Made by a program: the position numbers and the translations under genes
DNA from: an uncultured Pseudomonadales bacterium
GTDB lineage: Bacteria > Patescibacteriota > Microgenomatia > UBA1400 > PJMF01
Assembly: GCA_964556485.1 (NCBI GenBank)
Contig: CAZKVV010000004.1
Coordinates: forward strand, 57,618 to 121,617
Length of the DNA: 64,000 nucleotides
Direction: 5' to 3'
The notes under the pieces: model-generated
The model's input: the letters and a program-made list of their open reading frames with translations, nothing else
Databases searched by the model: none
What the model was told of the DNA's origin: nothing
Part shown: positions 43,442 through 64,000 of the stretch, in pieces
How positions within the stretch are numbered: the first letter of the stretch is position 1
Layout of the letters: every line of letters starts with the position of its first letter

Positions 43442-44177
43442 AAGACACTTCTTGTTTCCTCTCAGTCAGTAAAGATTTTGCTATTTGCTTACCAATGGTT
43501 GTCACAAAGTAGTCATCAAGGTCTACTTCAAGGCTTTCAAGATATGTTTGTGGAGAAATATTTTTTCTTACGGTATCTTGCCAAAAATTAAGGTGAGTAA
43601 ATGACCACAAATGATCAAGATCAGCAAGCAGCTGCACTTCTATTGGCATGGTATGTTGAATACCAGCAACTTCACTAGGTTTGTCATGAAATCGTATGGC
43701 TTTGCAGATAAGATCGATTTCAGGTTGTGATAATCCCAACGCTGACTGTTTTTCTGTAAGTATGGTCCTTGCTCTTTTTTCACCTAACACAGCATGTTTT
43801 TCTTTTGGTCCCATGGCTTTTTCGGTGAGGACAAGACCTGTTACGCCCAAACTAGCTGCTATTTCTTCTTGTGACATTTCACTCCATCCAGAGTCATGCA
43901 ACATCAGTGCATAGGCAAGTACGTTTCGATTTACCGTATTTCCTGCTGATTCTGCTTTATGAATAAACTCATCAAGATACTGCATACAAAATGCAGTATG
44001 AACATCAGTGGTTCGGGCAGACAAAAAAGGGAGTATTTCGGTGTAAAAATTTCTAAATTCTGCAGGAACAAAATCGAGATACTTTTCTTCCCAAGGAATA
44101 TAGAATAGGAAATGAAGATCTTCAGGTTTAAGGGTGGAATTTTCAGGTAGTTTAAGTTGAAAGTCTTGTATTAGCAT
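43431..44177 (-). CDS. HD-domain phosphohydrolase
   Basis: LMLHDSGW H..HD motif and downstream His/Asp. Confidence 0.6.
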   Translation of the reverse strand: MLIQDFQLKLPENSTLKPEDLHFLFYIPWEEKYLDFVPAEFRNFYTEILPFLSARTTDVHTAFCMQYLDEFIHKAESAGNTVNRNVLAYALMLHDSGWSEMSQEEIAASLGVTGLVLTEKAMGPKEKHAVLGEKRARTILTEKQSALGLSQPEIDLICKAIRFHDKPSEVAGIQHTMPIEVQLLADLDHLWSFTHLNFWQDTVRKNISPQTYLESLEVDLDDYFVTTIGKQIAKSLLTERKQEVSFVL

Positions 44178-44207: not shown

Positions 44208-45677
44208 TTAAAATGAAAATAAGTAAACAATCCACTCAGAGTCTTCAATGTACCAAGTTTGTAATAACTTTTCATATCTAAATCGTTCCATTTCTGGCGA
44301 AATATCGTTTCTTAAATTTTCTTCTGTCTGAGTAGAAACAACAAACAAATAGTTATTTGTGAAGTACTCATACTTACTTTTTAGTTGAACGCCCTTTATT
44401 TCTAACAGGCTTCTATATTTCCATCCATACCTATTTGGATCGGGACTACCAAGCACTGCAATATTTGCTCCTGAAATATTATTTTGGGTTACTTCGTGGT
44501 ACAGAATGTTGGTGATAGCATCAGCTGTTCTAATATTTGGTTGCCACATAGCTGGCATATATTTTTGGGTAGTGATTTGCGGAACAATACTCAACAATGA
44601 TCCATTTATGAGAATAAAAGTCGAGACAAGCACGATGTTAACTTTTATAATTTTTCTTGGTAAGTAAAGGTAGATAACAAAGAAAACTAATCCCGGTAAA
44701 AAGTAGTGGGTGTATGCATCTTTAATAAAAGTTACACCAAGTATTTGTAGGAACCATACGATGATAAACAACAAATGTTTTTTTGACTTCTTAAAGTCAA
44801 AGAGCATGAGTGCGAGTAAGTAGATAGCCAAAAGGGCTCCAGAAAAAGAAGGACCTGCGTAGTGACGGACGACGGTGTAAAAGTTATGAAAGAAATCAAA
44901 AATAAACGTCACAAGATTGCGATTAACATTGTTTTGTTGATACATCATCAAACGGCTAAAAAATAATCCAGGTGGATGGGTGAGATCAAATGCGATGAAG
45001 GGAAGTATTGCAAAAGCAAATCCTGGAACTAACCAAAGATACGTTTTGAAGTCTCTAGATTTGTATTTTTGTAGCAAGGTAAGAAATATAAATGCAGCAG
45101 TGGCAATAAAACTCAAATAATGATGATGTATTGATAAGCCTAAAAATAATCCAGATAAAAACAGGGTGAGTTTTGTTTTTCGCTGAAAGAAAAGCAGTCC
45201 TAAGGCAATCCAAATCAGCACCAGGTGTGGATTCCAAGCCCAGCGACTTGTTTCAATCAAAGGAAACCAAATTGCAGCAACCAGAGCAGCACCAAGCCAT
45301 GCTTTTTTATTTATTTTGGTGATGAGTACCACCAAGAACACAGCTGAGAGTAAGCCATAGACTGCAGCACCATATGTTGTTGAGACTGTACTAAACTTCC
45401 CAAGAACCGCAAAGGGCAGCAACATGTAGTACGTGAGTGAACTATATACTTTGTCACCTTCTTCGGAAATAGGACCGATTAAGGAAATTCTTTTTTCAGT
45501 ATAAAAAAGTTGTATTTGCCTTAAATCGTAGGCCTGATCCCAAAAAAAGGTTGCAGTAGTTTTAAGTGCATAAAATCGTGTGAAAATTGCCAAGCTAAGT
45601 ATGATGATTACTAACCAAAATTCAAACTTGGTGAGGATTTTTTTAACGTTTATTTTTTGCATCTTTTTACAAGTCAA
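44208..45677 (-). CDS. GT39/ArnT-like polytopic membrane glycosyltransferase (third copy in window)
   Basis: N-terminal FWDQAYDL and multi-TM architecture similar to the GT-C family. Confidence 0.5.
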   Translation of the reverse strand: MTCKKMQKINVKKILTKFEFWLVIIILSLAIFTRFYALKTTATFFWDQAYDLRQIQLFYTEKRISLIGPISEEGDKVYSSLTYYMLLPFAVLGKFSTVSTTYGAAVYGLLSAVFLVVLITKINKKAWLGAALVAAIWFPLIETSRWAWNPHLVLIWIALGLLFFQRKTKLTLFLSGLFLGLSIHHHYLSFIATAAFIFLTLLQKYKSRDFKTYLWLVPGFAFAILPFIAFDLTHPPGLFFSRLMMYQQNNVNRNLVTFIFDFFHNFYTVVRHYAGPSFSGALLAIYLLALMLFDFKKSKKHLLFIIVWFLQILGVTFIKDAYTHYFLPGLVFFVIYLYLPRKIIKVNIVLVSTFILINGSLLSIVPQITTQKYMPAMWQPNIRTADAITNILYHEVTQNNISGANIAVLGSPDPNRYGWKYRSLLEIKGVQLKSKYEYFTNNYLFVVSTQTEENLRNDISPEMERFRYEKLLQTWYIEDSEWIVYLFSF

Positions 45678-45831: not shown

Positions 45832-47019
45832 GTGCTATTTGAGTACAATAAGCTTGTGCCAATAGATATGCCAATACCCATCCCACCTGAAGATGAATTA
45901 CTTTATCGTTATTGGGATTTTTTTGGAAATAAGCCTATTGACCCAAGTAAAGAGGCTCAAAAAATTACTGTTGAGTTCTCTTTACAAGAAAAAGTGCTCT
46001 TAAAAGCACTGATTGCATATTTTGAAAACAGAGAAGAAAGAAAATCTGCTTTGAGTATAGTCATAGGGTATGATTTAGATTCTCAAGAGAGGACTCGTAC
46101 CCACGATGTTTCTAATGTGACTAATGAGAAAATTAATGAAATAGTTACTCATCATAAACAGAATCCAACTGAAGCAGCTCTTTTTTTAAGACAAGCTTTA
46201 ACAACTATTTTTAATGATCCCATGATTTCTTCCACTACAAAAAAAACAGATCGCTTAACTCGTTATTTGCAGTCCAGTTTAACCTTGCAAGTTAAGTTGG
46301 ATAGATTAAGCTTTTTGCCCAGTGACAAAGTGATAAACAAAGTGCCAAGCTATGTACCTGATGGTTTAAGTGATATGGGTGGGGATCCTACTATTAATCC
46401 ATCTGAAAGAGAACGGGAAAAAATCCGAGTTGATAAAGCTAAGATATTTTCTAAATACTCAGCTCAGCTTACTAAGCTTTATTTGGAAATCTCAAACTCT
46501 AAGTTGGATCCGGATGACTTGAAAATTCAAGGCTACATTGCTGAAAGAGTTTCTCATATGGTTTATGAAGCATTACCGTATGACCGACAGTGCAGAGCTG
46601 GAATTGAAGGTGCATTCTTAGGCAGATCAATAGGTGTTGATGATATCCATGATAAAAAAATGGCAGTATGTAGACATCATGCCCTTGAAACCCAAGTGTT
46701 GCTTCAGGCTATGGGAATTCAAGCTCAGCTCTTTAAATGTAATGTGCAATTTGGAAATGGTCGATTTGGAGGTCATGCTGCAAATTTGGTAGAACTAGAT
46801 GGTGAATGGTTTATTTTAGATACAACCAATCCTGAAGCGATTGATCGTAGTGCAAAAGTGTATTTGAAAAAAATAGATGGCGTTACACAAAATCCTTATA
46901 GCGATGGCGAGGAACACACCTATGTAATGGATCAAAACTCAGATGCGCAGAGAACATACGTGTTGAGGGATAAAATGTATTACAGAGTTCGTGATAATAA
47001 AAATAATAGATTAAATTAA
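45832..47019 (+). CDS. Hypothetical protein with C-terminal transglutaminase-like (Cys-His-Asp) domain
   Basis: MAVCRHHALETQVLLQAMGI (Cys), GGHAANLVELDGEWFILDTT (His/Asp). GTG start at 45832 or ATG at 45868. Confidence 0.5.
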   Translation: MLFEYNKLVPIDMPIPIPPEDELLYRYWDFFGNKPIDPSKEAQKITVEFSLQEKVLLKALIAYFENREERKSALSIVIGYDLDSQERTRTHDVSNVTNEKINEIVTHHKQNPTEAALFLRQALTTIFNDPMISSTTKKTDRLTRYLQSSLTLQVKLDRLSFLPSDKVINKVPSYVPDGLSDMGGDPTINPSEREREKIRVDKAKIFSKYSAQLTKLYLEISNSKLDPDDLKIQGYIAERVSHMVYEALPYDRQCRAGIEGAFLGRSIGVDDIHDKKMAVCRHHALETQVLLQAMGIQAQLFKCNVQFGNGRFGGHAANLVELDGEWFILDTTNPEAIDRSAKVYLKKIDGVTQNPYSDGEEHTYVMDQNSDAQRTYVLRDKMYYRVRDNKNNRLN

Positions 47020-49499: not shown

Positions 49500-51389
49500 C
49501 TATGCTACTAGATCCCATTCTCTGAGTTTCTCAACATCTCCAGATTGAATTTTGAATAAACTAGCGTATAAATCGTCTCGCTTCATTAACTCTGCGTGAG
49601 TGCCTTGCTCAAGAATTTTTTGTTCTTTGAAAACAATAATATTATCAGCTCTTTGTATTGTTGAAAGCCTATGGGCAATAATAATTGCTGTCCGGTTGGA
49701 GAGCAATTTCTTTAATGCTTGCTGAATATACATTTCAGATTCTGAGTCTAAGGCGCTGGTAGCTTCATCTAAAATAATTATTTTAGGATCGCGAAGAACC
49801 GTGCGAGCTAGTGACAATCGCTGTCTTTGGCCGCCAGATAACTTTACACCGCGCTCACCAATAATGGTTTTCAATCCTTCGGGGAGTTGAGAAATAAACT
49901 CATCTGCATGTGCTACTTTGCAGGCATCCAACATTTCTGCTTCAGTAGCAGTAGGTTTTGCATATCGTAAATTTTCTTCAATTGTTTCGGCAAATAAATT
50001 TGAATCTTGGCTTACTAATCCTAAATGCAAACGCAAATCATGTTGCTTCATTTCTCTAATATCCACGCCATCAAGCATAATTGAACCTTCTGATACATCG
50101 AAAAATCTCATGATTAAACTGGCAATGGTAGATTTGCCAACTCCGGATGGACCAACTAAAGCAGTAGTTTTATTTGGTTCAATAGTAAATGAAATGTCAT
50201 CGAAAACTTTGAGATTTTCAATCCTAGATGGTTTAACTTCCCGTCCTTTATTAATTTCAGAGTCAAACTCAACAATTTGTTGTGGTTCATAAATAAAGGA
50301 AACATTTTTGAACTCAATTTTGCCTTCAACAGTTTTCAAAGTTACTGGCTTACTGGGGTCAGTAACACGAGGTTGGATGGAAATAATTTTCATGAAATCT
50401 TTAGCACCAATTTGTGCACGTTTAATTTCCCAAAAAATCCAGTTAATTTGCCAGAGTGGTCCACGAATGAGCTGAATTAGTCCGACAAGTAATATCAATG
50501 TTCCCACTGTAATATCTCCCAGCCATGTTAAATACACGATGTATGCGTACATGCTCCAACTGAAAGCTTCTAAAATTAGGTCAGCGCTCACAGCTTTAAA
50601 ACTGTTCCACTGCATTTGGGTACGTAGCGCTAAGTATTCTTTGAAAAAAGCAATGAATTTTTTACGTTCAAAATCTTCCGAACGAAAGGCTTTTATAAGC
50701 TGCATTGAACTAATGACTTCAAAGAAGTGACTATATTGTTCATCGTATAGTTTGTATTCTTGTCTTTCTAAGACCTCATCTTTCTTAAAACGCCAACGAC
50801 TAATGAGGGCGTAAGGAATAAAAGCTATAACAGTTAAAATGGCAACTCTCCATTCATGAAAAACCACAATGCTAAAAGCAACTACGGCAGTGGTAATACT
50901 TGGCAAAGAGTGAATTCCAAAATTACTGACTATTCCAGAGAGTCTGTTTACACCTCTGTCTAACTTGCTCATAACTTTGCCACTTGGCTGGTCATGAAAA
51001 AAATCGAGTGAGAGTCTCATTAAGTGATCAAAACCAATTTGTTTGAGATGCGATTCGAGTTTAACCGAAAATATGTTTGTTATAAAAAAGGAAGTCGCGT
51101 TGAGAATACTTTGAATGATTTTAACCGTAAGTAGGATAAGTAAGGTTGTAAAAATACTTGACCATGCAATACTCGCTTCTTTTTCCACTAAGATGTCGGT
51201 AATTTCTTTTGTAATAAATGGTTCGACCTGATTCAATCCTGCCATAACCACAATTAAAAGTGTTATTGTCAGTAACATTTTCCAATATGGTTTTGCAAAT
51301 GACATTGCACTAAGAAACATAGTTGTGATTTCCGCTATACAATTCCAAATAATGCTTGGAGTTATACCTACACTATACACTTGCTTCAC
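49500..51389 (-). CDS. ABC transporter, fused permease/ATPase (type I exporter, MsbA/bacteriocin-exporter-like, no C39 domain)
   Basis: Six TM helices plus NBD. Walker A GPSGVGKST, signature LSGGQRQRLSLAR, Walker B IIILDEATSALD. Confidence 0.85.
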   Translation of the reverse strand: MKQVYSVGITPSIIWNCIAEITTMFLSAMSFAKPYWKMLLTITLLIVVMAGLNQVEPFITKEITDILVEKEASIAWSSIFTTLLILLTVKIIQSILNATSFFITNIFSVKLESHLKQIGFDHLMRLSLDFFHDQPSGKVMSKLDRGVNRLSGIVSNFGIHSLPSITTAVVAFSIVVFHEWRVAILTVIAFIPYALISRWRFKKDEVLERQEYKLYDEQYSHFFEVISSMQLIKAFRSEDFERKKFIAFFKEYLALRTQMQWNSFKAVSADLILEAFSWSMYAYIVYLTWLGDITVGTLILLVGLIQLIRGPLWQINWIFWEIKRAQIGAKDFMKIISIQPRVTDPSKPVTLKTVEGKIEFKNVSFIYEPQQIVEFDSEINKGREVKPSRIENLKVFDDISFTIEPNKTTALVGPSGVGKSTIASLIMRFFDVSEGSIMLDGVDIREMKQHDLRLHLGLVSQDSNLFAETIEENLRYAKPTATEAEMLDACKVAHADEFISQLPEGLKTIIGERGVKLSGGQRQRLSLARTVLRDPKIIILDEATSALDSESEMYIQQALKKLLSNRTAIIIAHRLSTIQRADNIIVFKEQKILEQGTHAELMKRDDLYASLFKIQSGDVEKLREWDLVA

Positions 51390-53047
51390 CGCAAATCACA
51401 AAACATTTTATTTTTGAATGCTTCGTTTCTATCCCCCCAATATTTCTCGATAAAGTTGCGGAATTCTTTATCTTCTGAGTGTGAGAGACTATGCACTCTA
51501 AGGTTGCTTAATTCATTTAGTATAACAGGCAGCTGGGACGATAATCTCAGTCCAATATGTGATAAAACTATGCTCAATCGATATATTTCTTCTCTATTTC
51601 TAGATTCATAAGTATCAAGAACTAGATTTGTTTTGGCAGATAACAAGGTATGTAGTTGTTTTAAGTATTCAATCATATCTTTTTGCATTCTCGTTAGGGT
51701 TAATCTTTCAAGCCTTGCGAATTTTTCCTCAATTTCCAAGCATTTTTGTTGCAATTGTTCTTTAGCTAGGGCAACAAATTCGCCCAACTGATGGTTTGGA
51801 ATATCTAGGCTGCAAAAGTGAGCTAGGGTTTCTTCAAAATATTGAATTCCAAGCGCATCTCTAGAAATACCCACTAAAATTTCATCTAATCGATTCGTTC
51901 GTTCTTCATCATTCCATTCCGAGTCATCACCATAGATCTCACCAGAATTTGTCATAATAGGCTGCATAAAAATGATTTTATGATCAAGAAATCGTCGTAT
52001 TTCATTTCTACTTTCGTTTTTATCACTTTTAATTTTTAAGTACATCCATATTGAATCGAACATAAACAATCGACCATCTTGGATGGGCAATTCAAAATTT
52101 CCTGTTCGATTTATTGGTGTTGCTGCTACCATTGAAACTGAGCGAGAATTATCTGGTGAGAGAACAACCCCATCTAAACAAGCGGGTGAACCAATATCTT
52201 CCATTGCATCTTGTCGTTCTAAATTCTTTCCTACAAGCTGAAGACCTTTGCCACTTTTTGCATCTTTCGGTTTCACATCAATCATCTGTTTCATGAGAAA
52301 GTTAACATGATTTTTTGATAATCCACGTTCATATAATTTTTTTTCAATCAGCGCTAAACACACTTCTGCTCTTTGTGCATTGTGCCCACTAATGCTGAGG
52401 TTTATTTTGGTTGGACAAGAATAAGTTTCAATCGAAATGTCAACAATTCTTAGTGCCAAATCCACAAATACATCTTGAGAGCCAGTCGGTAAAGATGTAT
52501 TAATTGTTCTAGTCATCACGGGGCATTTGACTAATAGAAGTTGGTATACATCCAATGCAGTTTTCTCACCATCTCGATAATCTAAAAAATCGGTGTTGAA
52601 ATACGGATAGACTTTGTAAGGAGCATTGTCTTGAATTTGTTGTCCATATTTTGTAAAGAATGCTTGCATGGAATTAAAACTAAATGTATGAGTGATTCCC
52701 CTCGGTTTTTCGCCTAAGAAGCAATAACTACAACCGCCATTACATCCTCTGGTAAATTCAATTGCAACAATATTTTTTAAGATAAATTCTTTTGTTGAGT
52801 CGTCAAAATTTTCAAATGTTTTCAGTAGATCAATATGTTTTACGCGCTCTGCATTAGCACTGTGTTCTGGCTGTAAAAACCACATCTGTTCTAATGCAAC
52901 TCTAGCTTCATTTCGGACACCTTCGTCAAAACTTCCCGACATTGCCAGTAGATCTTGTTTACCAGCCTTTGGACTCACGCCCCACTCCATCATCATGAGG
53001 AATTCTGTTGCTAGTTGGGGGTTTACCTCACTGAGATCATTACACAT
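51386..53047 (-). CDS. Radical SAM enzyme (553 aa, non-SPASM), function unknown
   Basis: CxxxCxxC cluster motif in AIEFTRGCNGGCSYCFLG. 4-nt overlap with the ABC exporter gene. Confidence 0.7.
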   Translation of the reverse strand: MCNDLSEVNPQLATEFLMMMEWGVSPKAGKQDLLAMSGSFDEGVRNEARVALEQMWFLQPEHSANAERVKHIDLLKTFENFDDSTKEFILKNIVAIEFTRGCNGGCSYCFLGEKPRGITHTFSFNSMQAFFTKYGQQIQDNAPYKVYPYFNTDFLDYRDGEKTALDVYQLLLVKCPVMTRTINTSLPTGSQDVFVDLALRIVDISIETYSCPTKINLSISGHNAQRAEVCLALIEKKLYERGLSKNHVNFLMKQMIDVKPKDAKSGKGLQLVGKNLERQDAMEDIGSPACLDGVVLSPDNSRSVSMVAATPINRTGNFELPIQDGRLFMFDSIWMYLKIKSDKNESRNEIRRFLDHKIIFMQPIMTNSGEIYGDDSEWNDEERTNRLDEILVGISRDALGIQYFEETLAHFCSLDIPNHQLGEFVALAKEQLQQKCLEIEEKFARLERLTLTRMQKDMIEYLKQLHTLLSAKTNLVLDTYESRNREEIYRLSIVLSHIGLRLSSQLPVILNELSNLRVHSLSHSEDKEFRNFIEKYWGDRNEAFKNKMFCDLR

Positions 53048-53049
53048 TT

Positions 53050-53247
53050 TTATGCATCCCTCTTGATCATGCGCAGCTCAATCTCAGCCATTTTTTTTAT
53101 AGCATTCACCATTTGCCTAACGTATTCTTCTTGATTTGGGCAAAGCTTTTCTGTCTTCTGTTTAGGTTTGTAAGTTTGATTCATATAGTGTGATATCACA
53201 CTCTGATTTTTTTGAGAAAAATCGGAGTCATTTTTAGTTGTCCACAA
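53050..53247 (-). CDS. Small ORF (65 aa) translationally coupled to the radical SAM gene, possible precursor or accessory peptide
   Basis: TTG start 9 nt after a GAAGG. Its stop lies 2 nt before the rSAM ATG and the rSAM RBS AGAGGGA sits inside its 3' end. C-terminal amphipathic helix. Confidence 0.35.
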   Translation of the reverse strand: MWTTKNDSDFSQKNQSVISHYMNQTYKPKQKTEKLCPNQEEYVRQMVNAIKKMAEIELRMIKRDA

Positions 53248-53268
53248 CGTGTTGTTGCCTTCAGCTTA

Positions 53269-56200
53269 TTAAGCAGCATCAATCAATTGTTCAACCCTCT
53301 GTCGTTGTTCATATTCGCCGATTTTTGGCAAAACAACTAGCTTCACGGCATTTTTAACACTTTTTTGATCAAACTCCTCTAAGTCGAAGATGATTTCTTC
53401 GGTTTCACGCTGAGTGAATACAAACTCTACGATGTCGTTTGATTCATTTCGTTGATAAGCGCGGTAAGCTTGACGTACTTTGTTTGCAATTCTTACTAAG
53501 AGGTCTAAGGCACTAATGGCTTGTAACCGCTCTGGCGTAGCGAATATATCTCCGCCATTAACCGCATCACCATTAACCGCATGGTTCCACAACTTCGTAA
53601 ACTCCTCCTTATTGAGTGTTCTCAAATCCTCAGCTCGTTGAGCAAGAATGAAGGCTTCGTCAGGACGTTTTCTGACCTTTGTGAATCCTTCAGTTGATTT
53701 GCCACTTGGGACTGTTTGAGTTTCAACATTAACTCGCTCGTACTCTCCATTAACTTTTTCAATCACGTTGTAAGGTTGGTAATCTACTTCTATCACTCTG
53801 GCACGGCTCTTAAACTCTTGTGCCAATGGCTGAGTACCAATATAGTTTTCTGGATTCATGGTGCCAATGAGCAAATTATCTGGATGTACTTCAATCTTTT
53901 GTCCGATGCCATTGGTGTTAAGCTCAACATAATCAGGGTCTTCACCTTGAGTGAAGTACAACGTGCGGCGGTAGTCAAAAACCGAGTTTAACATTTTAGT
54001 TACTTCTGCAGGCATGGCGTTAATTTCAATCAAGTTGATAATTACACCAGGTTTAGAGAGAGCTTCAGCAAACTTAGCGGGTACGCGATAAGTGCCTTTC
54101 TTGGGATCGAATCTGAACTCTGAAGTAAGATCCTCGGGGTCCATTGTTTTGCGACAGGGAATATTAACTACTTCGTAATTTGTTAAGGCTCCAAATGCGT
54201 CAATATTAAAGTCTTTGCCCACACCAGCGTCACCTTGCATGATTAGCAATCCTCTTGGAGTTCTCACTCGGTTCAGTTGTTTATCCAAACCCAACTGTGC
54301 TCGCAAGTTACGCGCCATATTACCGAGTACTTCTAAAGTGTATTCGGTCATCCTAAGTTCGCGACTAAGTGGAGGAACTTCACGTTTGGGATTAAAGTGC
54401 GTTTCCGCACGAGCTTTAGCTTTTTGATAACGAGGATCACTGTCGTCGACCCTCATATTCATGTAGACACCACTGCGCCAAATCCCAGCATTCTGACTCT
54501 CGAAAGCTAGTTCACCTTTATACTCAGCTCTTTGGTCGGCAGTAAGTTTTGAGAAGTCAATTTTCTTACCATCTGTACCCCAAACGATGGGCGTTACCCA
54601 TCCTGGAGAGAAGAGTATCTGGCGATCCCTGAATGTTGGGAATGCTTCACCAGCTAGTACTCTAACTTTCTCGCGCTCTATTGTTTTAGTCGCTTCTTTT
54701 TCTTGTTCGAACCGCTGAACTCTTTCCCGAAGGAGAGAAAGATACTGTTGATCATAATCAGCACGGCGACTCTCAGGAAGATGATTGATCAACTGTCTAA
54801 CACGTTCAGAGCGTGGATGGTTAAATGCCCATGCTTCAAGATTAATTCTACCCTCAGTCTCACCCAAGACCGCATCAATATCTTCCTGAAGTTCGCGTAA
54901 AGCCTCGGCTATCTCTCGAACAACTTCCTCAACTCTTGCTTCTTGTTCTCTTTTTCTTTCATCTGTTTTTGTCTGAATCTCTGAGCGTTTCTTCTGGCGG
55001 ATCTCACCCCAAGCAACTCTCAAGCGTCGTCTTTCTTTAGCATCGGTAACGAGATTTAATCTAGAGTTAAACCGTTCGACGACAGGATCTTTCTCCAACT
55101 CACTTAATTCGTTGATGCTCAGCGCTGGTTGAATAGCGGCTTCCATTTCCGACAACATCCCTTCCAAAGAAGTGACGAGTTGGCCTTGGAACTCCTTCTG
55201 TAATTCAACAATTCTTTCGGAGGAATGCTCAAGGCTTGTTTGAACTTTATTTCTCAAATCACCTTCTAGCACCTGCAGGTTTGCTGACTGCCGCATTTGA
55301 CGAACTTCTTCAAGCCTTTGCGCTACAGCAATGCTTTGTTCTATGGTTGTTGCCAGGCGGACACGTTGTTCCAAATCCTCAACAGCTTCCACTAAGACCT
55401 TTGCCTTAAACTCGTTTCTTCTTCTTTCAAAAGCTTGTTGCACTGTGGCAAAAGCTTCTGGGTACTGCTGATAGGGGTCTTTTTTTCTTAAAACTGAGAG
55501 CTTTGCCTCTAGTTTAAGCAGAGCTTGTTCATCGGTTGCTGACTGAACTAATGGTAAAAATTCTCCCTCTAATTTAACCTTCAGAGCTTCCTTAATATCG
55601 TCATTACTGACTGTTTTTTCTTGTTTTCTCTGTAGTGCAGTTACCTTTTCTTCGAGATCATTCGCAACAATATTATCTATGTCTAATTGTTCGATCTCTG
55701 AAAGTAGTGCCTTCATCTTCTGTCGTTGCTCTTCTAACATTCGCGACATTTGCTCGGGATCAAACTGAGCAAAGTTGGTGGTAATAATTCTTAGTTGGTT
55801 GTTGTCGTCAACAAAGTAGAGATTGCCAGCCTTATCTGCGCCAACATTACTTTTAATTCCTGCAAATGCGTAGTGTTTAGTCCGAGATTTCTTATCGAAA
55901 ATAGTTAGCTGATTATCACCATGCTTAACAATAAGAAAATTGCCTCGAGGATCCATAATTACTTGTTGGATATTGTCTACATCGAGCAAATCAATTGTTT
56001 CCGAATTAAGAAAACCGCTTTCCATGCCAGTTAGTGAAAACTTATGAAGTTTTCCATTCTCCGTAAAATAAACAGTATCACCATCTGAAGGATCGAGCAC
56101 AGGGCGAGGATCAGACAATGCTCTAATTTGTCGCTCAAAGCCACTTTCATTTTTGTTATAGATTCGGGTTATTGTCTGACCATCAGACACTGCATAAATA

Positions 56201-56895
56201 CCTGTTTTATTCTTAAATAGTGGCAAAACTTCGCTTGGAGATTTTTTCCAGTTTTTTAGGTCAGGTCCATCGACAGCCAGTGCAACCGCCTCACCCATAA
56301 TTTCGAGTGTGACAATATTACCATCCACCGACATTACTGTTGTTGGTCTTTTAATTAACTGCTCGTCACTAACCATACCGATATGATGATCTTTTAAATC
56401 TGAGGGTGATAAAAACCACGAATCAACAGTTTTTTTTTGACTCAAACTAGTCTGTTGAAGTATCTTAACTGCAAGTTTCTGAATTTCTTCTCTATCCTTT
56501 GACGCATCTAGCCCGGGAACAAATTGGGCAATTATTTTATTAAGATTCACTCCGCCAAATTGTTTAACAAAAGCCTCTGTTCCGATAAAATTTCTGTCGC
56601 TTGTTTTTAATGCTACTAAAGCTAATTGAATAATTTTTCGGCATGTAAAGCTTGTCCTGATGTTTGGAAAAATTTCTTCCAAACTCTTCATCTGACCCTG
56701 TGGAGAAATAACGACTATGTGAGAGCTAGTACTTTTTGAAGCAAAAACCCATCCATTTTCAAGAACAGCCACCGATGATAAGTCTGTGTTTGTTTCTGAT
56801 GCTGATGTCTTGAAATAATCTGGAGAATGAAGGATGGTCTGTGGTGCAGGAACTTTTGTTTCATGCAAATTTTTGTTAAATTCTGTCATATTCAT
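53269..56895 (-). CDS. Giant protein: beta-propeller-like N-terminal region, ~500-aa coiled coil, C-terminal dynein-related AAA_5 (MoxR-like) ATPase domain with degenerate Walker motifs
   Basis: LLIMQGDAGVGKD (Walker A with Lys-Asp), VIINLIEINAMPAEVTKMLNSVFDYRRTLYF (AAA_5 llDEiNla...r region with IE for DE), LLIGTMNPENY...SRARVIEV (sensor1/Arg). Long heptad-like E/R/K/Q-rich stretch at aa ~370-800. Confidence 0.65.
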   Translation of the reverse strand: MNMTEFNKNLHETKVPAPQTILHSPDYFKTSASETNTDLSSVAVLENGWVFASKSTSSHIVVISPQGQMKSLEEIFPNIRTSFTCRKIIQLALVALKTSDRNFIGTEAFVKQFGGVNLNKIIAQFVPGLDASKDREEIQKLAVKILQQTSLSQKKTVDSWFLSPSDLKDHHIGMVSDEQLIKRPTTVMSVDGNIVTLEIMGEAVALAVDGPDLKNWKKSPSEVLPLFKNKTGIYAVSDGQTITRIYNKNESGFERQIRALSDPRPVLDPSDGDTVYFTENGKLHKFSLTGMESGFLNSETIDLLDVDNIQQVIMDPRGNFLIVKHGDNQLTIFDKKSRTKHYAFAGIKSNVGADKAGNLYFVDDNNQLRIITTNFAQFDPEQMSRMLEEQRQKMKALLSEIEQLDIDNIVANDLEEKVTALQRKQEKTVSNDDIKEALKVKLEGEFLPLVQSATDEQALLKLEAKLSVLRKKDPYQQYPEAFATVQQAFERRRNEFKAKVLVEAVEDLEQRVRLATTIEQSIAVAQRLEEVRQMRQSANLQVLEGDLRNKVQTSLEHSSERIVELQKEFQGQLVTSLEGMLSEMEAAIQPALSINELSELEKDPVVERFNSRLNLVTDAKERRRLRVAWGEIRQKKRSEIQTKTDERKREQEARVEEVVREIAEALRELQEDIDAVLGETEGRINLEAWAFNHPRSERVRQLINHLPESRRADYDQQYLSLLRERVQRFEQEKEATKTIEREKVRVLAGEAFPTFRDRQILFSPGWVTPIVWGTDGKKIDFSKLTADQRAEYKGELAFESQNAGIWRSGVYMNMRVDDSDPRYQKAKARAETHFNPKREVPPLSRELRMTEYTLEVLGNMARNLRAQLGLDKQLNRVRTPRGLLIMQGDAGVGKDFNIDAFGALTNYEVVNIPCRKTMDPEDLTSEFRFDPKKGTYRVPAKFAEALSKPGVIINLIEINAMPAEVTKMLNSVFDYRRTLYFTQGEDPDYVELNTNGIGQKIEVHPDNLLIGTMNPENYIGTQPLAQEFKSRARVIEVDYQPYNVIEKVNGEYERVNVETQTVPSGKSTEGFTKVRKRPDEAFILAQRAEDLRTLNKEEFTKLWNHAVNGDAVNGGDIFATPERLQAISALDLLVRIANKVRQAYRAYQRNESNDIVEFVFTQRETEEIIFDLEEFDQKSVKNAVKLVVLPKIGEYEQRQRVEQLIDAA

Positions 56896-56919
56896 TCACA
56901 TTATTAACTATTACTTTTT

Positions 56920-59235
56920 TTATTGGCCCTGCCTAAGTCTTTGACCTATTCTTCTCAAAATTGGCGTCATCACTCTCCTGGTTTCTATCGTCAGTTGACC
57001 CATGTTTTCGGGAATTATTACTCTATCTTCCCCAAAATATGTGTCTAAGCCAGCTTTTATTCGTTGCTTTTCATCCCGACTATTGGATAGACCAAAAGCG
57101 AAAAGCTCAAATACCTTTTTGATCTCGTCGATTTTTTCTACTAACGGTTGGCCGGTCAAACCACTGTTTGGTTCACCGTCTGTAAGAAACATAATAACAC
57201 CCTGTGAACCAGGAAATCTACGTCTTGAAGCGAGCAATTGTTCGTAGGCACTCACTACACCAGCTTCGTAGTTGGTACTACCATGCAATGATTTCGTTTG
57301 AGCAATGAGTTTGGCCTTAATTCGTTGTTCAGGAGAGGAGAATGGTTGATTAGGGTTTTTAAGCACTGATGAATTAGAACCCATAGTAATGATTCCAGAT
57401 GGAATGTTGTACTTCTCACACAACATCATCCACAAAATAAGATCTTTTAAAGATTCGTCTAACTTAGCGCCATGCATGCTGCCCGTAATATCGATAACAA
57501 ACCAAATGAATGTTTCAATTTTTTGCGATAATTCAATATCCTTTCTTGTATTAAAGCGACTGTCTCCAACGGGGAATTTACGAGCTGCCTGACGAGCGTC
57601 AGGTCTACCCGAATAGAAATAACCTTGCTGAGTCATGATCCACTCACGAGGGAATGCTTTCATCACTTGCTGATCCATCGATCTGAAATCAGCCATCATT
57701 TCGCGTTCCAACTCCTTGTATCGATCGTAGTTACCCTCTTCATCTTCTCTAAAACCAGCCTCTCTCATTTCGCGAAGTTTTCGTTCTTTTTGCTCGCGAG
57801 CTTTTTGTTTGGCTTCCTGTTTTTGTTGCTCAGCTTGTTGTTGTTGTATGTCGTGTTGTTCACGCTGTTGCTCTTCTTTCTCAAACTCTTCCAATTCCTT
57901 CTGGGCTTTTTCCACTTCTTTTTGATCAGCTGTTTGAATCTTTGGCTTGAATTCACCAGTTTCTTCATCTTGCTCCATCTGTATCATCTGTGGTGCTTCT
58001 TTATTAAGCTTTTCACTTTGTTTTTGATCGGTTTGTTTGCGAGCATCTTCTTCAAGTTTTTCTAATGCTTGAGGATTAAGATTTTTCAAAAAAAACTCCA
58101 GTTGCTCGCGTGTTTCAGTAGAGAGTTCATTCAAATCCATCTCACACTCACTTGTTTCTGGATTTTCTCCTTGGCTTCCCGGTCGTTGCTCATCAGGTTG
58201 AGCGCTAGATTGCCCCTCTGACTGTTGAGAACTTTGCAAGCCGCTTTGTCGTCCGGATTGTGATTGTTTAGATTGGCTAGAGCTTTGGCTTCCTTGCTGC
58301 ATTTCCTGTTTGATCTTTTGTTTCAAATCTTCAGGAAGTTGAGGTTGTCCGCTGCCACCCCGTCCATCTTGACCCTCATTGCCTTGCCGACCCTCCATGG
58401 CTTGTTGAGCCATATTCCTTTTTACTTGATCCTCAACTTCTTCCTTCTCGAGGTCTCTTACTTGCGGCCAAATCTCTTCAGAAAATGTGTGGAAATTTTC
58501 CAGTGCAGACTTACTGGCGTAAAAACGATCAAGTGCTGGTCGCACTTTATCCATAACTGCTTGTACTCGCTCGTCTATACTAGGCAAGTCTTGGCCTGTT
58601 AACCAGTAATTGATAGCGTTAACACCAAACTGACGTGGTAGGGGATCATGAGGAATCTGGGTGGCAATTTCCTTAAGTTTACGCAAGTACCCACGTTTTA
58701 GATCTTCAAGCGCCGCTTGGGATTCTCCGGCAGACATGGCGTTAACCCAACCATCTTCGGGACCATTAAGCAGCGATCCATAGGTCGATGGTAGGAATCC
58801 TTGTTCCTTAGCCAATCTCATCCCTTGAAAAAAGAATTTGAAATCTGAGTGAGCAGCGTGGGCAGCCTCGTGTCTTGTTTTCCTGGTAATTTCTATCTCA
58901 GGATCACGGTATAAATCGTTCTTTCTAAAAGTGATGAGATTGGGAACTAAAGCCTGAGGAGGCAGGTGATCTAGATTGTCAATTTTACCACAAATATATG
59001 CATCAACAGCTTGAGCGTATTCTGGGTCAATACCACAAGTCCATGGTCCTTCGCCATCTAGTGCCGCAATCTTAAGGTCATAACGACCACTGAAAACCCT
59101 TGAAAGCCATGAAATCTGTTTCATTACCCTTCGAATTTCTTCCGGCGATCGCCTTTCATCATCTAATAGTTTGTTTTCAGATATAGATGAAGGGCTAATA
59201 GCCTCACCCGGCATACGGGAGATTTTTTCAGACAT
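56920..59235 (-). CDS. vWA (MIDAS) domain protein with N-terminal HExxH zincin-like domain and central Q/E/K-rich coiled-coil linker (DUF2201-like architecture)
   Basis: HEAAHAAH near aa 110. About 250 aa of low-complexity QQ/EE/K repeats. C-terminal FVIDITGSM (DxTxS MIDAS) ... FLTDGEPN vWA fold. Confidence 0.7.
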   Translation of the reverse strand: MSEKISRMPGEAISPSSISENKLLDDERRSPEEIRRVMKQISWLSRVFSGRYDLKIAALDGEGPWTCGIDPEYAQAVDAYICGKIDNLDHLPPQALVPNLITFRKNDLYRDPEIEITRKTRHEAAHAAHSDFKFFFQGMRLAKEQGFLPSTYGSLLNGPEDGWVNAMSAGESQAALEDLKRGYLRKLKEIATQIPHDPLPRQFGVNAINYWLTGQDLPSIDERVQAVMDKVRPALDRFYASKSALENFHTFSEEIWPQVRDLEKEEVEDQVKRNMAQQAMEGRQGNEGQDGRGGSGQPQLPEDLKQKIKQEMQQGSQSSSQSKQSQSGRQSGLQSSQQSEGQSSAQPDEQRPGSQGENPETSECEMDLNELSTETREQLEFFLKNLNPQALEKLEEDARKQTDQKQSEKLNKEAPQMIQMEQDEETGEFKPKIQTADQKEVEKAQKELEEFEKEEQQREQHDIQQQQAEQQKQEAKQKAREQKERKLREMREAGFREDEEGNYDRYKELEREMMADFRSMDQQVMKAFPREWIMTQQGYFYSGRPDARQAARKFPVGDSRFNTRKDIELSQKIETFIWFVIDITGSMHGAKLDESLKDLILWMMLCEKYNIPSGIITMGSNSSVLKNPNQPFSSPEQRIKAKLIAQTKSLHGSTNYEAGVVSAYEQLLASRRRFPGSQGVIMFLTDGEPNSGLTGQPLVEKIDEIKKVFELFAFGLSNSRDEKQRIKAGLDTYFGEDRVIIPENMGQLTIETRRVMTPILRRIGQRLRQGQ

Positions 59236-59462: not shown

Positions 59463-59657
59463 CTAGTCGTTTTCCAGCCATGGACCCTCTTTAATGATGT
59501 TCCTAAGAATTTTCATTTGTTGAACTGATAGTTTTAGTAACTCACCTAAATCTTTTTTGAAATCTTCATTAATAGCTATTTCTTGAAGAGATTCATATTT
59601 TTGAGCCAATCTAGATTCAGCTGCTAATGCTTCAGCGATGTCTGCAATGTTTGCCAT
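59463..59657 (-). CDS. Small helical protein (64 aa), hypothetical
   Basis: ATG ORF MANIADIAEALAAESRLAQKYESLQEIAINEDFKKDLGELLKLSVQQMKILRNIIKEGPWLEND. RBS AAAGGAG 6 nt upstream. Flanked by TCTGTTAGAAC direct repeats. Confidence 0.4.
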   Translation of the reverse strand: MANIADIAEALAAESRLAQKYESLQEIAINEDFKKDLGELLKLSVQQMKILRNIIKEGPWLEND

Positions 59658-59862: not shown

Positions 59863-62800
59863 CTAAATCAGATAAAATGTGTGTACTGTCTTGGAACTTG
59901 AAATCTGGAATGAATGACTGATTCTTGCTTCAGGTTTATAAAATCTTAAGGCTAAATACTTATCAACTCCCTCGCCAACTCGATTTGTTAATGGATGCCA
60001 ACTGTCTTGTTCAGGAATCATCACCTGAGAGATTCCATTGTCTGCTGCGATCTGCATAACCATATCAACCATCTGATCGCATAAAACTGCAGTATTTGTC
60101 GAAGAAATAATACTAGAAGATGGATTGAAGCCTCTGAAAATCAAAGTTGGTTGATTATCAACGGTTGTTTGATATCCTTGAATATTCCCTACAACAATAC
60201 CTTGATTATTGACTAAATTAACATGAAAATGATCTGGTCGGTGATATAACTCTATATCATGAGCCGTACACACTCCTGCAGTAGTCTTCGCAAAATATGA
60301 GGCTGCGTTTTTTGTAACATATCCAGTTAATATTAAGGTTGGGTCAACCTCTTGCCCCGCTTTATCTCTAAGTACAACTTTTCCTAATTCTGTTTCTACA
60401 CGCTTCCTCAGTCCTTTTGATCCAGAAAACATTGTTCTTTCAGTCATGAATGCTAAAAGTTTGGCTAAGTGCTGGCGTTTTTCAACAACGGACTTATTTT
60501 CGCGTAAACCAGAAATAATTGATGCAAAAGAGGCTTTTTCCTCTTCTCTCATTATCCTTGATCCACCAATATTTTTCTCCAAAGTTGCAAGTTTTTTCTC
60601 AGTCAACATACTGAGCAAACGGTCAGACACCATTGGATTTTCATCTAAAAACTTTGCGACTGCTTCACCTGCATTATCTTTATAATAAACCCCAAATAGT
60701 TCTTTAGCTTTTGATAAAAGGTTATTTTTATCAGCAACTTGAGAAGTGTCTCCAGTCATTTTTTCTGTATATTGATCAATTTTATCTCCGAGCGATACAC
60801 GCAAGCATGCAATCACTTCTTGTAGAGAGGATGTAAATAAATCCTCAGTTTTGGTTGCACCTGCCTCGGTTAATAATCGAGTCCAGCCTTTTAAAGCCAT
60901 CGCAGTATCACCACCAGAGGCAATGTAATCAGACGTTTGTTCGTTTCTAAATATGACTTTAACTAAATTAACAACTCCTTCGTCAACTGGTTTGTCCGCA
61001 CTTCTTAATTCAGCTACTTTTTCTTTTGAAGCAATGCTTCCTCGATATCCACTCTCTCGAAAATGCATTCCACTAATATCATCACAATGATCACCAACTC
61101 TAGCTAGCTCTAACCTAACAGAATTAACATCTGTACTTGGAAATGTTAAGCAAATCATTTCAGCCATGAAGTCTATGCCACTACTTCCACTCGTTAAATC
61201 CATAAGTGGCACATTCCTATGAACATTTTTACGGAATGCTTTTACCCTATCCCTGTGATTTTCCCTAGAAAGCTCATCTGCTTCTAATATGTAACCCCTA
61301 ACTAATGATGGTGTGATATTTCTAAACTCTTCCATTGCTTCCAAAAGACGCTCTGTGTATAAGGGGTTAGTCATGATTCTAGCAACATCTTCGCCTGAAA
61401 TTGTCTGAAACGTTGTTACACAGCTATTAAAACTAGTGGGTTTGGTGTTTAGCATCCTTTTAAAGAATCTGGCGTACCCATCTTGTTCTAGGTTAGCTTG
61501 TAACCAATCTAATGACGACTTCGTTGTATAAAAAACATTTTGACTATTCAAGCCAATTGTCGCCCCCAATTGATGTAAGTAAGCTGGCCGAACTTGAGAC
61601 AAAATTTGATTGGTTTGAGGATTTTGTACTAAACTCCTAAATCGGTCGAAATCTGTTAATTTCCAGCCTGCGGACATCATGTGAGCCGACAAAACTCCGT
61701 TTTGCTCCCAATATGAGGCTCTATCTGGAATTAAAGCATCATATTTAGGATCGTTTGATTGGTCATGAAATCTTGCCAATGTTTGGATATATTCGACTGA
61801 TAATTCAAACCCATACGCAACTGCAAATGGCGCTATAAATGAATTACTCAGATTCCCGTTTTCAGCTAAGTCTTGTGATAGTGCATCATACACGTCATTA
61901 AAATGACGCGCACACATGTCTTTATCATTTTGTATTCCAATTATTAAACTTGCTCTAATTTCGCGTTTTTCAGCATTGTTGAATGTGGAAGCATCAAGAT
62001 TGTAGTCGGCGAGAAAACTTTGTGGCTGTTCTTTGGCAATTAGTCCCACTAAAGCAGATGTGGCTTTATGATCATCGACAAGAGTATTAAATATTTCTTT
62101 TTTGCCTATTAGTACTTTTTTAAGATATCCTTTCGCTCCCTTCCAATATCTCCAGTATTTCTGTGTTTCTTCTGGCATTTGTTCTAATGCCTGCTCAGTG
62201 ACCAAAGAGGCAAGAGTGTCTAACTCAACAGTCTGGCTTGTGGACAATTCTGTCAATAAATGTTCAGACGCCGATCCATTTACGACATACGTATTAATTT
62301 CTTCTCTTCTTTCTAGTATGAATCCATGCAACTCGTCCTCGTCATGTTGTCGCCAAAAATCCCAAAAGACCTTTCCTTCAGCCGTCATTCCTGCCAACGC
62401 TTCGTCGGAAATTAATGATGTAATTAATCTGTCGCCGACCCGCAATCTGTCTGATACTAAATTCTCTAATAATAGCTCCGTCGCCACACCATTAACAACC
62501 AATAAATCAAAATTCGATCTTTGCTTGATTAGATAATCATGCAAAACGTCAGCATCATGTTTCTTCCAGAAGCCCCAAAATTTTTCCCCTTCATCGCCCA
62601 TGGATTCCAAAGCGTCCTTTGTGATCATCCATGTCGCTTCTCTGAATATATTTTCTTTATTTCTATTACGAATAGTGTCACGACCAGATGATTCGTCTGC
62701 ACCTGAAATTAATTCATCGAGCCATTTTTGGGTTGGCACACCTTTTTCATTGACATAAGAGTCTATGTTGAAATCAGCTTCTCCCCGATGCCTAGTTAAT

Positions 62801-64000
62801 AATTCTATATAAGCATTAATCCCCGATGTTTTTGCTTTATTTCGACCATAATGTAGCTGAGGATTTGCATAAGAATCTGCCTGATGGTCAATGAGTAAAA
62901 ATAGCCTTTGACCGTAACTCTCATTACTGGCTAACTCGCATAAAAACCCCAAGGAAACTTTTCGATTGCCTCGGTTGTCTTCCATTTGAACACTAAATTC
63001 GGCGTCTTGATTTAGTTGATGAGCAAATTGCCACACGCATTGTCTACCAGTATCTTTGAGTCCAAAATACTCTCTAAGATCATTTGCCGATATTACGTTT
63101 TGACAATATAAACTTGGGATTTCAACTCCAACTCGTTTCAGTTCTGAAACCAATCTTTGCCTATCATCGTCGTTAACACCTGATAAAGTTTTAAATATTT
63201 CAACCGTCTGGCTGTTAAACGTTGCAAGAGGATTATTTAGTTCTTCCCTCAGTCTCAATATTTCATCATTAGGAATGGTTGCGAGTATTTTTAGTGTTAA
63301 TAAATCAGAGTTTGAGCGCACACAAAAACCGTCTGATGTTAATAATTTTTGTCTTTGAGCAATTATCTCGCGCTTTTTATATATACTAAGCCATTCATCT
63401 GGATTACGAAGAATAGTATCCCACTGTTCGCCTTGATTATTATTGTTTTGAAGTACGATACTAACAAACGCTCTATCTAGTCCCATCTGTCTTACTTCTG
63501 GTCTCAATAGTGTTTGTACTCTACCTTTCATTTCTTCAATAGTTATTTTTTCCTGGCCTATAACAGTTATCACATTCAACTTTGATGATTTTAAGTCATC
63601 AGATATCTCAGACAATGGTTTGAACACTTCCCGTACTTCTTCCAAAGAGAAATCCTTTAAAGAATCACCAATATCCTGCCATAAGTAATATCTGCTTAGC
63701 GCCCCATCTCCGCCGTCTTGATCCCTCGTCAAAGTTGTGCCTGTTAATTGCGTTATTAATAAAGATTTTTCTAATCTATCTGGATCAGATTTCCTAACAT
63801 AGTCTTTAAAATCGTATCCATCCGCACTCAAAGGCATTTTCCGACCGTATTTAGCTAGAACTCTAGCATTTTGTCTTAATGAGTCGTTTGCGCAAACAGC
63901 TTTAAAGCTAGCTTGATGATTTTCTACAAAAACTTTCGGGTTTGCGGAATCTGTAGTGCTGCGATCATTAAAATGAAATCCCCAACTTACATCAAACCCG
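59863..64000 (-). CDS. Giant hypothetical protein (over 1324 aa) with three internal ~65-aa repeats. Reading frame stays open to the window edge, so it is possibly N-terminally truncated here
   Basis: First ATG at 63837, but the frame has no stop from 63838 to 64000. Repeats contain (F/Y)WxFWK ... VVNGxAxELL motifs. No TM or signal peptide. Confidence 0.6.
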   Translation of the reverse strand, partial: GFDVSWGFHFNDRSTTDSANPKVFVENHQASFKAVCANDSLRQNARVLAKYGRKMPLSADGYDFKDYVRKSDPDRLEKSLLITQLTGTTLTRDQDGGDGALSRYYLWQDIGDSLKDFSLEEVREVFKPLSEISDDLKSSKLNVITVIGQEKITIEEMKGRVQTLLRPEVRQMGLDRAFVSIVLQNNNNQGEQWDTILRNPDEWLSIYKKREIIAQRQKLLTSDGFCVRSNSDLLTLKILATIPNDEILRLREELNNPLATFNSQTVEIFKTLSGVNDDDRQRLVSELKRVGVEIPSLYCQNVISANDLREYFGLKDTGRQCVWQFAHQLNQDAEFSVQMEDNRGNRKVSLGFLCELASNESYGQRLFLLIDHQADSYANPQLHYGRNKAKTSGINAYIELLTRHRGEADFNIDSYVNEKGVPTQKWLDELISGADESSGRDTIRNRNKENIFREATWMITKDALESMGDEGEKFWGFWKKHDADVLHDYLIKQRSNFDLLVVNGVATELLLENLVSDRLRVGDRLITSLISDEALAGMTAEGKVFWDFWRQHDEDELHGFILERREEINTYVVNGSASEHLLTELSTSQTVELDTLASLVTEQALEQMPEETQKYWRYWKGAKGYLKKVLIGKKEIFNTLVDDHKATSALVGLIAKEQPQSFLADYNLDASTFNNAEKREIRASLIIGIQNDKDMCARHFNDVYDALSQDLAENGNLSNSFIAPFAVAYGFELSVEYIQTLARFHDQSNDPKYDALIPDRASYWEQNGVLSAHMMSAGWKLTDFDRFRSLVQNPQTNQILSQVRPAYLHQLGATIGLNSQNVFYTTKSSLDWLQANLEQDGYARFFKRMLNTKPTSFNSCVTTFQTISGEDVARIMTNPLYTERLLEAMEEFRNITPSLVRGYILEADELSRENHRDRVKAFRKNVHRNVPLMDLTSGSSGIDFMAEMICLTFPSTDVNSVRLELARVGDHCDDISGMHFRESGYRGSIASKEKVAELRSADKPVDEGVVNLVKVIFRNEQTSDYIASGGDTAMALKGWTRLLTEAGATKTEDLFTSSLQEVIACLRVSLGDKIDQYTEKMTGDTSQVADKNNLLSKAKELFGVYYKDNAGEAVAKFLDENPMVSDRLLSMLTEKKLATLEKNIGGSRIMREEEKASFASIISGLRENKSVVEKRQHLAKLLAFMTERTMFSGSKGLRKRVETELGKVVLRDKAGQEVDPTLILTGYVTKNAASYFAKTTAGVCTAHDIELYHRPDHFHVNLVNNQGIVVGNIQGYQTTVDNQPTLIFRGFNPSSSIISSTNTAVLCDQMVDMVMQIAADNGISQVMIPEQDSWHPLTNRVGEGVDKYLALRFYKPEARISHSFQISSSKTVHTFYLI

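Follow-up and report, generated by a model that had tools for sequence, protein, structure and literature searches.

The window analysed here, a 64,000-nt stretch of contig CAZKVV010000004.1, ends in a large open reading frame (ORF) on the minus strand (59863..64000, -), which encodes the C-terminal 80% of a 1714-aa modular protein. The frame contains no stop from 63999 down to the stop codon at 59863-59865, and translation of 59866-63999 (-) gave 1378 codons, none of them a stop. The first ATG is found at 63837 and would yield 1324 aa to the stop, but this ATG is internal; the true N-terminus lies 336 codons past the window edge, because an NCBI protein (P0001, 1714 aa) that is 100% identical over the window part extends 336 aa further upstream and because homologues align with the large protein from residue 7 onwards. 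The translation of the window begins at residue 337 of P0001, whose numbering is used throughout, and the segment absent from the window is itself conserved in 11 proteins. P0001 is a singleton in 90% clustering and is encoded on a single 125-kb NCBI contig. The first-pass annotation had described the ORF as running off the window edge, with the N-terminus probably beyond it, and on both points it was right; its label "giant" is overstated for 1714 aa.

Sequence-level domain assignment failed throughout: Pfam, NCBIfam, PADLOC and PDB searches (phmmer and profile) of the window part were all negative, and the full 1714-aa protein, its N-terminal 336 aa and the family profiles likewise gave no sequence match of this kind. 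A word-indexed search returned the large protein itself as the sole match. Exhaustive HMMER searches with the last 1200 residues as query revealed 286 relatives at E ≤ 1e-3 (185 at ≤ 1e-10 and 54 at ≤ 1e-30), which rules out an orphan protein; clustered at 50% identity, the family comprises at least 286 representative sequences. A phage or defence origin was discarded, as there was no PADLOC match, no relative in viral contigs and no structural match in BFVD.

The modular architecture was determined by segment-wise iterative searches over the top 150 of the 286 relatives. The N-terminal segment N1 (residues 1-336, outside the window) was found in 11 of the 150 and N2 (residues 337-790; 62638..63999, -), which has no recognisable domain, in 10, including P0022 and P0047. 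The repeat region, searched as residues 791-1004 (-), was present in 18 and the following linker (residues 1005-1080; 61768..61995, -), which is conserved in the closest relatives only, in 8. Far more widespread are the module MID (residues 1081-1519; 60451..61767, -), which is all alpha-helical save for a conserved unstructured loop (125/150), and the C-terminal GNAT-fold domain (residues 1520-1714; 59866..60450, -; 143/150), which is nearly always located at the extreme C-terminus of the relatives. MID and the C-terminal domain were found behind many unrelated N-termini. Besides, P0022 and P0047 have kept N1, N2 and the repeats, lack MID-GNAT and carry another C-terminal half instead, which in P0047 ends in a DUF294 nucleotidyltransferase-like domain. 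The N-terminal region is thus combined with alternative C-terminal domains, an arrangement by which polymorphic toxins are recognised.

The C-terminal GNAT-fold domain and the helical region before it

The structure of residues 1520-1714 was predicted with AlphaFold2 on an alignment of 31 diverse domains (A1) and reached a mean pLDDT of 89 and a pTM of 0.79. The order of the elements in the model, b1-a1-a2-b2-b3-b4-a3-b5-a4-b6-b7, is the canonical order of GNAT proteins; DSSP assigned strands (E) and helices (H) as E42-46, H49-57, H66-70, E74-80, E86-97, E100-110, H120-137, E142-146, H162-170, E176-184 and E187-194. Foldseek against the PDB gave 36 matches at E ≤ 1e-3, the best being NatD/Naa40 with E = 1.5e-5, and all 50 of the listed matches were GNAT-fold proteins or domains with probabilities of 0.98-1.00. 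Among those listed were NatD/Naa40, FeeM, aminoglycoside acetyltransferases (AAC enzymes), Gcn5, SpeG, AtaT and the GNAT-like domain of ICL2. The earlier statement that no known domain is recognisable holds at the sequence level, where all searches were negative, but not for the fold, since the last ~195 aa fold confidently as a GNAT domain.

Conservation was determined over 141 domains, in which twelve polar residues are kept in more than 90%: N1628 in 100%, K1566, C1580, R1625 and P1629 in 99%, K1574, T1581 and R1676 in 96%, N1608 and Y1612 in 94%, H1595 in 93% and H1593 in 91%. The near-invariant residues of the C-terminal domain are encoded on the minus strand at 60310-60312 (K1566), 60268-60270 (C1580), 60223-60231 (H1593/H1595), 60133-60135 (R1625), 60124-60126 (N1628) and 59980-59982 (R1676). 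In the model, the twelve conserved residues fall in b3, in the a1-a2 and b5-a4 loops, where b2 begins and where b4 ends, elements which in known GNATs build the cleft for cofactor and acceptor. The C-terminal Cys/His motif (CTAHD...DHFH) pointed out in the first-pass annotation is indeed present and comprises C1580, H1593 and H1595; judged from its sequence conservation, it is a plausible catalytic or metal site.

The region in front of this domain, residues 780-1525, was modelled on a 56-sequence alignment (A3) with a pLDDT of 83.7, the block means being mostly above 90 at residues ~1020-1270 and 80-98 over most of the remainder. The model is all-helical but for two strand segments of two residues each and an unstructured, conserved loop in MID that carries the invariant G1320-Y1321. 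No structural assignment could be made for this region, as Foldseek found nothing significant in the PDB (best E = 0.47, TM-score < 0.16) or in BFVD. The calculated pI is 5.6 for the whole protein, 6.0 for MID and 7.2 for the GNAT segment. Transmembrane segments were not found in the large protein (maximum 19-residue Kyte-Doolittle mean 1.35), the first 40 residues, read by eye, are hydrophilic without a hydrophobic, signal-peptide-like stretch, and Pfam scans of residues 1-1714 revealed no secretion-associated domain. A membrane or secreted protein was therefore rejected for lack of a transmembrane segment and of a visible hydrophobic leader, and a soluble, cytoplasmic protein is the best explanation of these predicted features.

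Between N2 and the linker, three consecutive repeats (R1-R3) occupy 61996-62631 (-), which corresponds to residues about 403-614 when counted from the ATG at 63837. R1 (residues 793-864, WMITKDALESMGDEGEKFWGFWKKHD...VVNGVATELLLENL; 62416..62631, -), R2 (residues 865-934; 62206..62415, -) and R3 (residues 935-1004; 61996..62205, -), the most diverged copy, were identified by Smith-Waterman alignment and with a hidden Markov model (HMM) of the unit. The pairs scored 139, 81 and 61 compared to shuffled means of ~23 (z = 24.6, 13.1 and 9.5), and in 2000 shuffles these scores were never attained. The three copies with aromatic motifs that the first-pass annotation described are thus statistically significant, but their period is 70-72 aa and not ~65. 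The HMM built from the three units detected no fourth significant copy in the large protein. It found 1-6 copies in 13 related proteins, and the repeat unit is therefore a family-level module. TRF gave no match to a DNA-level tandem repeat, which rules out a recent DNA-level tandem duplication; the duplication is therefore old. AlphaFold predicted each repeat as a bundle of short helices, with low confidence in R1, rising through R2 into the 80s, and with block-mean pLDDT values of mostly 80-90 in R3. The protein has no Pfam repeat match to described helical repeat families (TPR, HEAT, ARM, Sel1 and others), and the best Foldseek matches to solenoid proteins had only E > 0.4 and TM-scores < 0.16.

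Relatives, host and neighbouring genes

One clade of relatives, 900-1180 aa in length, carries an N-terminus of the aspartyl-tRNA synthetase (AspRS) type ahead of MID-GNAT. Of 11 such proteins scanned, all had an OB anticodon-binding domain, five a class IIb aminoacyl-tRNA synthetase (aaRS) core and two a GAD domain. Most of the fusion loci examined (L008, L025, L026 and L028-L030) share a gene cluster encoding a DHQ-synthase-like protein, a Cupin_2 protein, a DegT/DnrJ/EryC1 aminotransferase, a radical-SAM/SPASM protein of ~250 aa and a CN_hydrolase; some add a Peptidase_S51 and a second class IIb aaRS, and one has a methyltransferase and a B12-binding radical-SAM gene instead. Judged from its gene content, the cluster resembles those for aminocyclitol biosynthesis.

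A second group consists of short forms of ~865 aa. Among themselves they share 45-55% identity; with the window protein, over its residues 1169-1714, they share ~26%. At four diverged loci on metagenome and Logan contigs (L019 (= L020), L022, L024 and L031), the short-form gene starts inside the 3' end of the reverse-transcriptase gene of a diversity-generating retroelement (DGR). The reverse transcriptases at the short-form loci carry the motif YLRYGDDF, and in L031 bAvd is encoded upstream. Genuine pairs of template repeat (TR) and variable repeat (VR) were found at L031 and L019, in which 13 of 13 and 24 of 24 mismatches, respectively, fall on TR adenines; the VR is located in the preceding gene. 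The short-form MID-GNAT could be an undescribed DGR-linked accessory gene.

For the malic enzyme encoded in the window, the closest named relatives come from Patescibacteria, Microgenomates and Levybacteria (63-66% identity), and full-length homologues of the large protein were found in metagenome-assembled genomes (MAGs) of Woesebacteria, Paceibacterota and Patescibacteria as well as in four MAGs labelled "uncultured Pseudomonadales". The host is thus probably a bacterium of the candidate phyla radiation (CPR, Patescibacteria). The loci of these four MAGs, L003-L006, which are GTDB representatives named "uncultured Pseudomonadales bacterium", encode full-length homologues of 43-52% identity and have a GC content of 33-36%, like the Patescibacteria loci; their taxonomic label or binning may be wrong. 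A Legionella-type Dot/Icm effector, which was suggested by the GC content of ~38% and a transglutaminase-like neighbour, was rejected because the malic enzyme and the homologues point to Patescibacteria. At 45832-47019 (+), the window encodes a 395-aa protein whose C-terminal domain is transglutaminase-like (DUF553) and of the Cys-protease type; nothing else in this protein could be assigned to a domain. Many genes of the window escape annotation, and further sizeable ORFs without any Pfam match are located at 28560-31508 (+, 982 aa), 44208-45677 (-, 489 aa) and 43431-44177 (-, 248 aa).

Downstream of the large gene, a set of genes on the same strand extends from 59657 down to 49500 (-). It begins with an ATG-initiated ORF of 64 aa (59463-59657, -), without a family match or a counterpart in related loci, that starts 205 nt from the large gene, within the 627 nt by which the latter is separated from a gene encoding a VWA protein. 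The genes within 49500-59235 (-) encode this 771-aa protein, with an N-terminal HEAAH zincin-like motif, a long low-complexity stretch rich in Q/S and E/K and a C-terminal VWA domain; a 1208-aa protein in which beta-propeller-like N-terminal repeats and a long coiled-coil-like stretch accompany an AAA_5 (MoxR/dynein-type) ATPase; a 553-aa protein that contains a radical-SAM-like CNGGCSYC (CxxxCxxC) motif and weak similarity to maturases of ribosomally synthesized and post-translationally modified peptides (RiPPs); and, as the last of the set, an MsbA-like ABC exporter. This region resembles a MoxR-VWA-propeller system joined to a radical-SAM/exporter pair. An intrinsic terminator was not found between 59100 and 60000. 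By tblastn, the VWA, AAA_5, radical-SAM-like and ABC genes have no homologue in related loci that carry family members, and a functional link to the large gene was rejected for this lack of co-occurrence. We conclude that these neighbouring genes are a separate system.

Neighbourhoods were also compared ORF by ORF in 23 family loci and the window (L001-L024, L008 excluded). Downstream genes vary between the family loci, except in near-identical relatives, and a conserved immunity-like gene was not present. Directly upstream of long-form homologues, and on the same strand, lies a helical ORF of 84-97 aa with 44-75% identity (L004, 1983-2237; L010 and L011, 9573-9860; L012, 6169-6462), whose equivalent position falls outside the window. 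Apart from this ORF, in four loci, no neighbour is conserved across the long-form clade, and the large gene is therefore best treated as stand-alone.

Proposed function and comparison with known systems

With a probability of roughly one half, we take the large protein to be a cytoplasmic, active acyl- or aminoacyl-transferase in which MID-GNAT is carried on a helical scaffold; activity, cysteine mechanism and substrate class are what we infer here. The functional unit would be the last ~630 residues, the all-helical MID followed by a single, divergent GNAT-fold domain. The reactive centre would be built by K1566, by C1580, T1581 and D1584 of the a1-a2 loop, by H1593 and H1595 at the start of b2, by R1625-x-x-N1628-P1629 at the end of b4 and by N1675-R1676 of the b5-a4 loop. 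The conserved Cys/His pair invites, as one possibility, an acyl-Cys1580 intermediate. MID may hold the acceptor or a nucleic-acid-linked donor, and the N-terminal ~1000 residues (N1, N2 and the three helical repeats) may form a scaffold, exchangeable and specific to the lineage, by which the enzyme is directed to a partner. We lean to aminoacyl-tRNA- or RNA-linked chemistry because in some relatives MID-GNAT is fused to AspRS-like tRNA-anticodon-binding domains and in others it shows translational coupling with a DGR reverse transcriptase. An extension of this idea, which we put forward tentatively and with some scepticism, is that MID-GNAT is an undescribed module for Cys-based acyl transfer on RNA-linked substrates (aminoacyl-tRNA, tRNA or DGR template RNA) that would be deployed in three settings: the large scaffold proteins of Patescibacteria, AspRS-like fusions in aminocyclitol-type clusters and a DGR-coupled accessory gene.

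Several findings speak against the proposed transferase. The TM-scores of the best Foldseek matches are only 0.45-0.5, and the position of the conserved residues on the loops of the GNAT active-site cleft is predicted from secondary-structure mapping and general GNAT knowledge. The canonical motif A loop Q/R-x-x-G-x-G/A between b4 and a3 is absent; at its position, R1625-G-F-N1628-P-S is followed by a 9-residue loop (family consensus LRGFNPS). Further, none of the 31 diverse domains matched a Pfam GNAT model (Acetyltransf_* or related) even at E ≤ 10. On this account the domain represents a strongly diverged branch of the GNATs, which need not use acyl-CoA and may serve for binding instead. 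The AspRS-like domains of the relatives mostly lack the canonical motifs 2 and 3, which makes aminoacylation uncertain even in the fusions; the window protein itself lacks any aaRS-like domain, and no DGR lies near it. The evidence from context is borrowed from relatives of only ~25-40% identity because, apart from the short upstream ORF, the protein's own clade has no conserved neighbour in the loci examined.

If the domain only binds, the GNAT-like part would be a non-catalytic pseudo-enzyme for a ligand or protein and the whole protein a helical structural or regulatory scaffold. Regulatory GNAT-like domains that bind acetyl-CoA only do exist, the GNAT-like domain of Mycobacterium tuberculosis ICL2 is among the listed structural matches, and helical scaffold without a structural match makes up more than 85% of the protein; together with the missing motif A and the lack of GNAT HMM matches, this fits such a role. 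However, the twelve polar residues conserved in more than 90% of the domains form a pattern as it is usually seen in catalytic sites or in sites that bind a ligand with high specificity, and we regard a pseudo-enzyme as unlikely. The same conserved residues could be read differently, with Cys1580, His1593 and His1595 as a structural or catalytic metal site and not as a nucleophile/base pair. Their high conservation and their location within 15 residues of one another, in the a1-a2 loop and at the start of b2, would agree with this, but there is one conserved Cys only, 12 of 141 domains have Tyr instead of H1593 and 7 have Gln or Asn instead of H1595, which is unusual for obligatory ligands, and no metal-binding family was matched; a metal site is thus highly improbable.

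The exchange of C-terminal halves raises the question of whether an episymbiotic CPR bacterium uses the protein as a polymorphic toxin or as an effector directed at its host, with an N-terminal delivery scaffold and an exchangeable GNAT-like warhead that would, for example, acetylate host aminoacyl-tRNA as AtaT and TacT do. The swapping seen in P0022 and P0047, including the DUF294-like end of the latter, the probable Patescibacteria origin of the genome and the presence of the AtaT toxin among the listed structural matches are in line with this. Against it stand the missing transmembrane segment, hydrophobic leader (by eye) and secretion-associated domain, the lack of a conserved downstream immunity-like gene in the compared loci and the negative results with PADLOC and viral contigs; besides, a toxin warhead fits poorly with the occurrence of MID-GNAT in biosynthetic-looking clusters and beside DGR reverse transcriptases. 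We consider an effector rather improbable. A role of the large protein as first gene of, or partner to, the VWA/MoxR/radical-SAM/ABC set is suggested by the common strand, the position directly upstream and the missing terminator. This is hardly credible given the gaps of 205 nt (64-aa ORF) and 627 nt (VWA gene), the lack of homologues of the neighbours in related loci by tblastn and the absence of a shared neighbour across the 23 family loci and the window.

If the transferase reading is true, the family of at least 286 members, for which there is no Pfam or NCBIfam model and no description in the literature searched, is a GNAT-fold branch without the canonical CoA loop and with an invariant Lys/Cys/Asn set. 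An important function is suggested because ~5 kb are spent on one gene in a probably small Patescibacteria genome. The AspRS-like fusions and the coupling to DGRs offer starting points for experiments, which might bring to light a new acyl-transfer chemistry linked to tRNA or RNA, or else another accessory factor of DGRs, and for the window the practical yield is a correct gene model and a domain map.

Of the known systems, MoxR-VWA systems (with a beta-propeller) are represented next door, but these component genes do not co-occur with the family in related loci. Toxins of the AtaT/TacT type are ~160-180 aa long, show the canonical acetyl-CoA motif and are encoded next to their antitoxin. The domain described here shares with them (6ajm is among the matches) the single GNAT fold and a possible link to aminoacyl-tRNA through the AspRS-like fusions of its relatives; unlike them, it forms the end of a 1714-aa protein and has neither the canonical motif nor a conserved partner gene.

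Described DGR accessory proteins fall into the classes Avd, HRDC, MSL and CH1 (PMC5758913). The short-form relatives directly follow and overlap the reverse transcriptase of CPR-type TR-(avd)-RT cassettes, but in size and fold they are unrelated to these four classes, and the window protein, which has no DGR nearby, belongs to a separate clade of long forms. Of AspRS-GNAT designs, only the fungal ErdS has been described, which consists of AspRS and DUF2156 (PMC7334510, PMC9437257), and what defines the dGNAT-alpha(+) aminoacyl-tRNA transferases is a pair of GNAT folds connected through a positively charged helix (PMC13219428). One clade of the relatives resembles this group (ErdS, aaPGS/MprF and FemX; PMC7334510, PMC13219428) in having an AspRS-type N-terminus and a C-terminal, transferase-like GNAT-fold domain. 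In contrast, the window protein has one GNAT fold behind an all-helical module, no Pfam match to DUF2156 and no aaRS-like domain, and the AspRS-like parts of its relatives mostly lack motifs 2 and 3. Membership in DUF2156/FemX was rejected on the single GNAT fold; the GNAT segment has a pI of 7.2 and MID one of 6.0.

Within the GNAT superfamily the closest structures are NatD/Naa40 (4ua3, 4u9w, 7kd7), the N-acyl amino acid synthase FeeM (2g0b) and aminoglycoside acetyltransferases (5hmn, 5f49). The window domain has the full topology of the superfamily, with conserved residues predicted on the active-site loops. It differs by the lack of a Pfam, NCBIfam or PDB profile relationship, by a TM-score of ~0.5, by R-G-F-N-P-S in place of the CoA-binding motif, by a 99% conserved Cys in the a1-a2 loop and by the ~440-aa helical module that precedes it in 125 of the top 150 relatives. 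MID-GNAT thus represents a new family with a highly divergent GNAT fold that is carried on a modular scaffold of helices.

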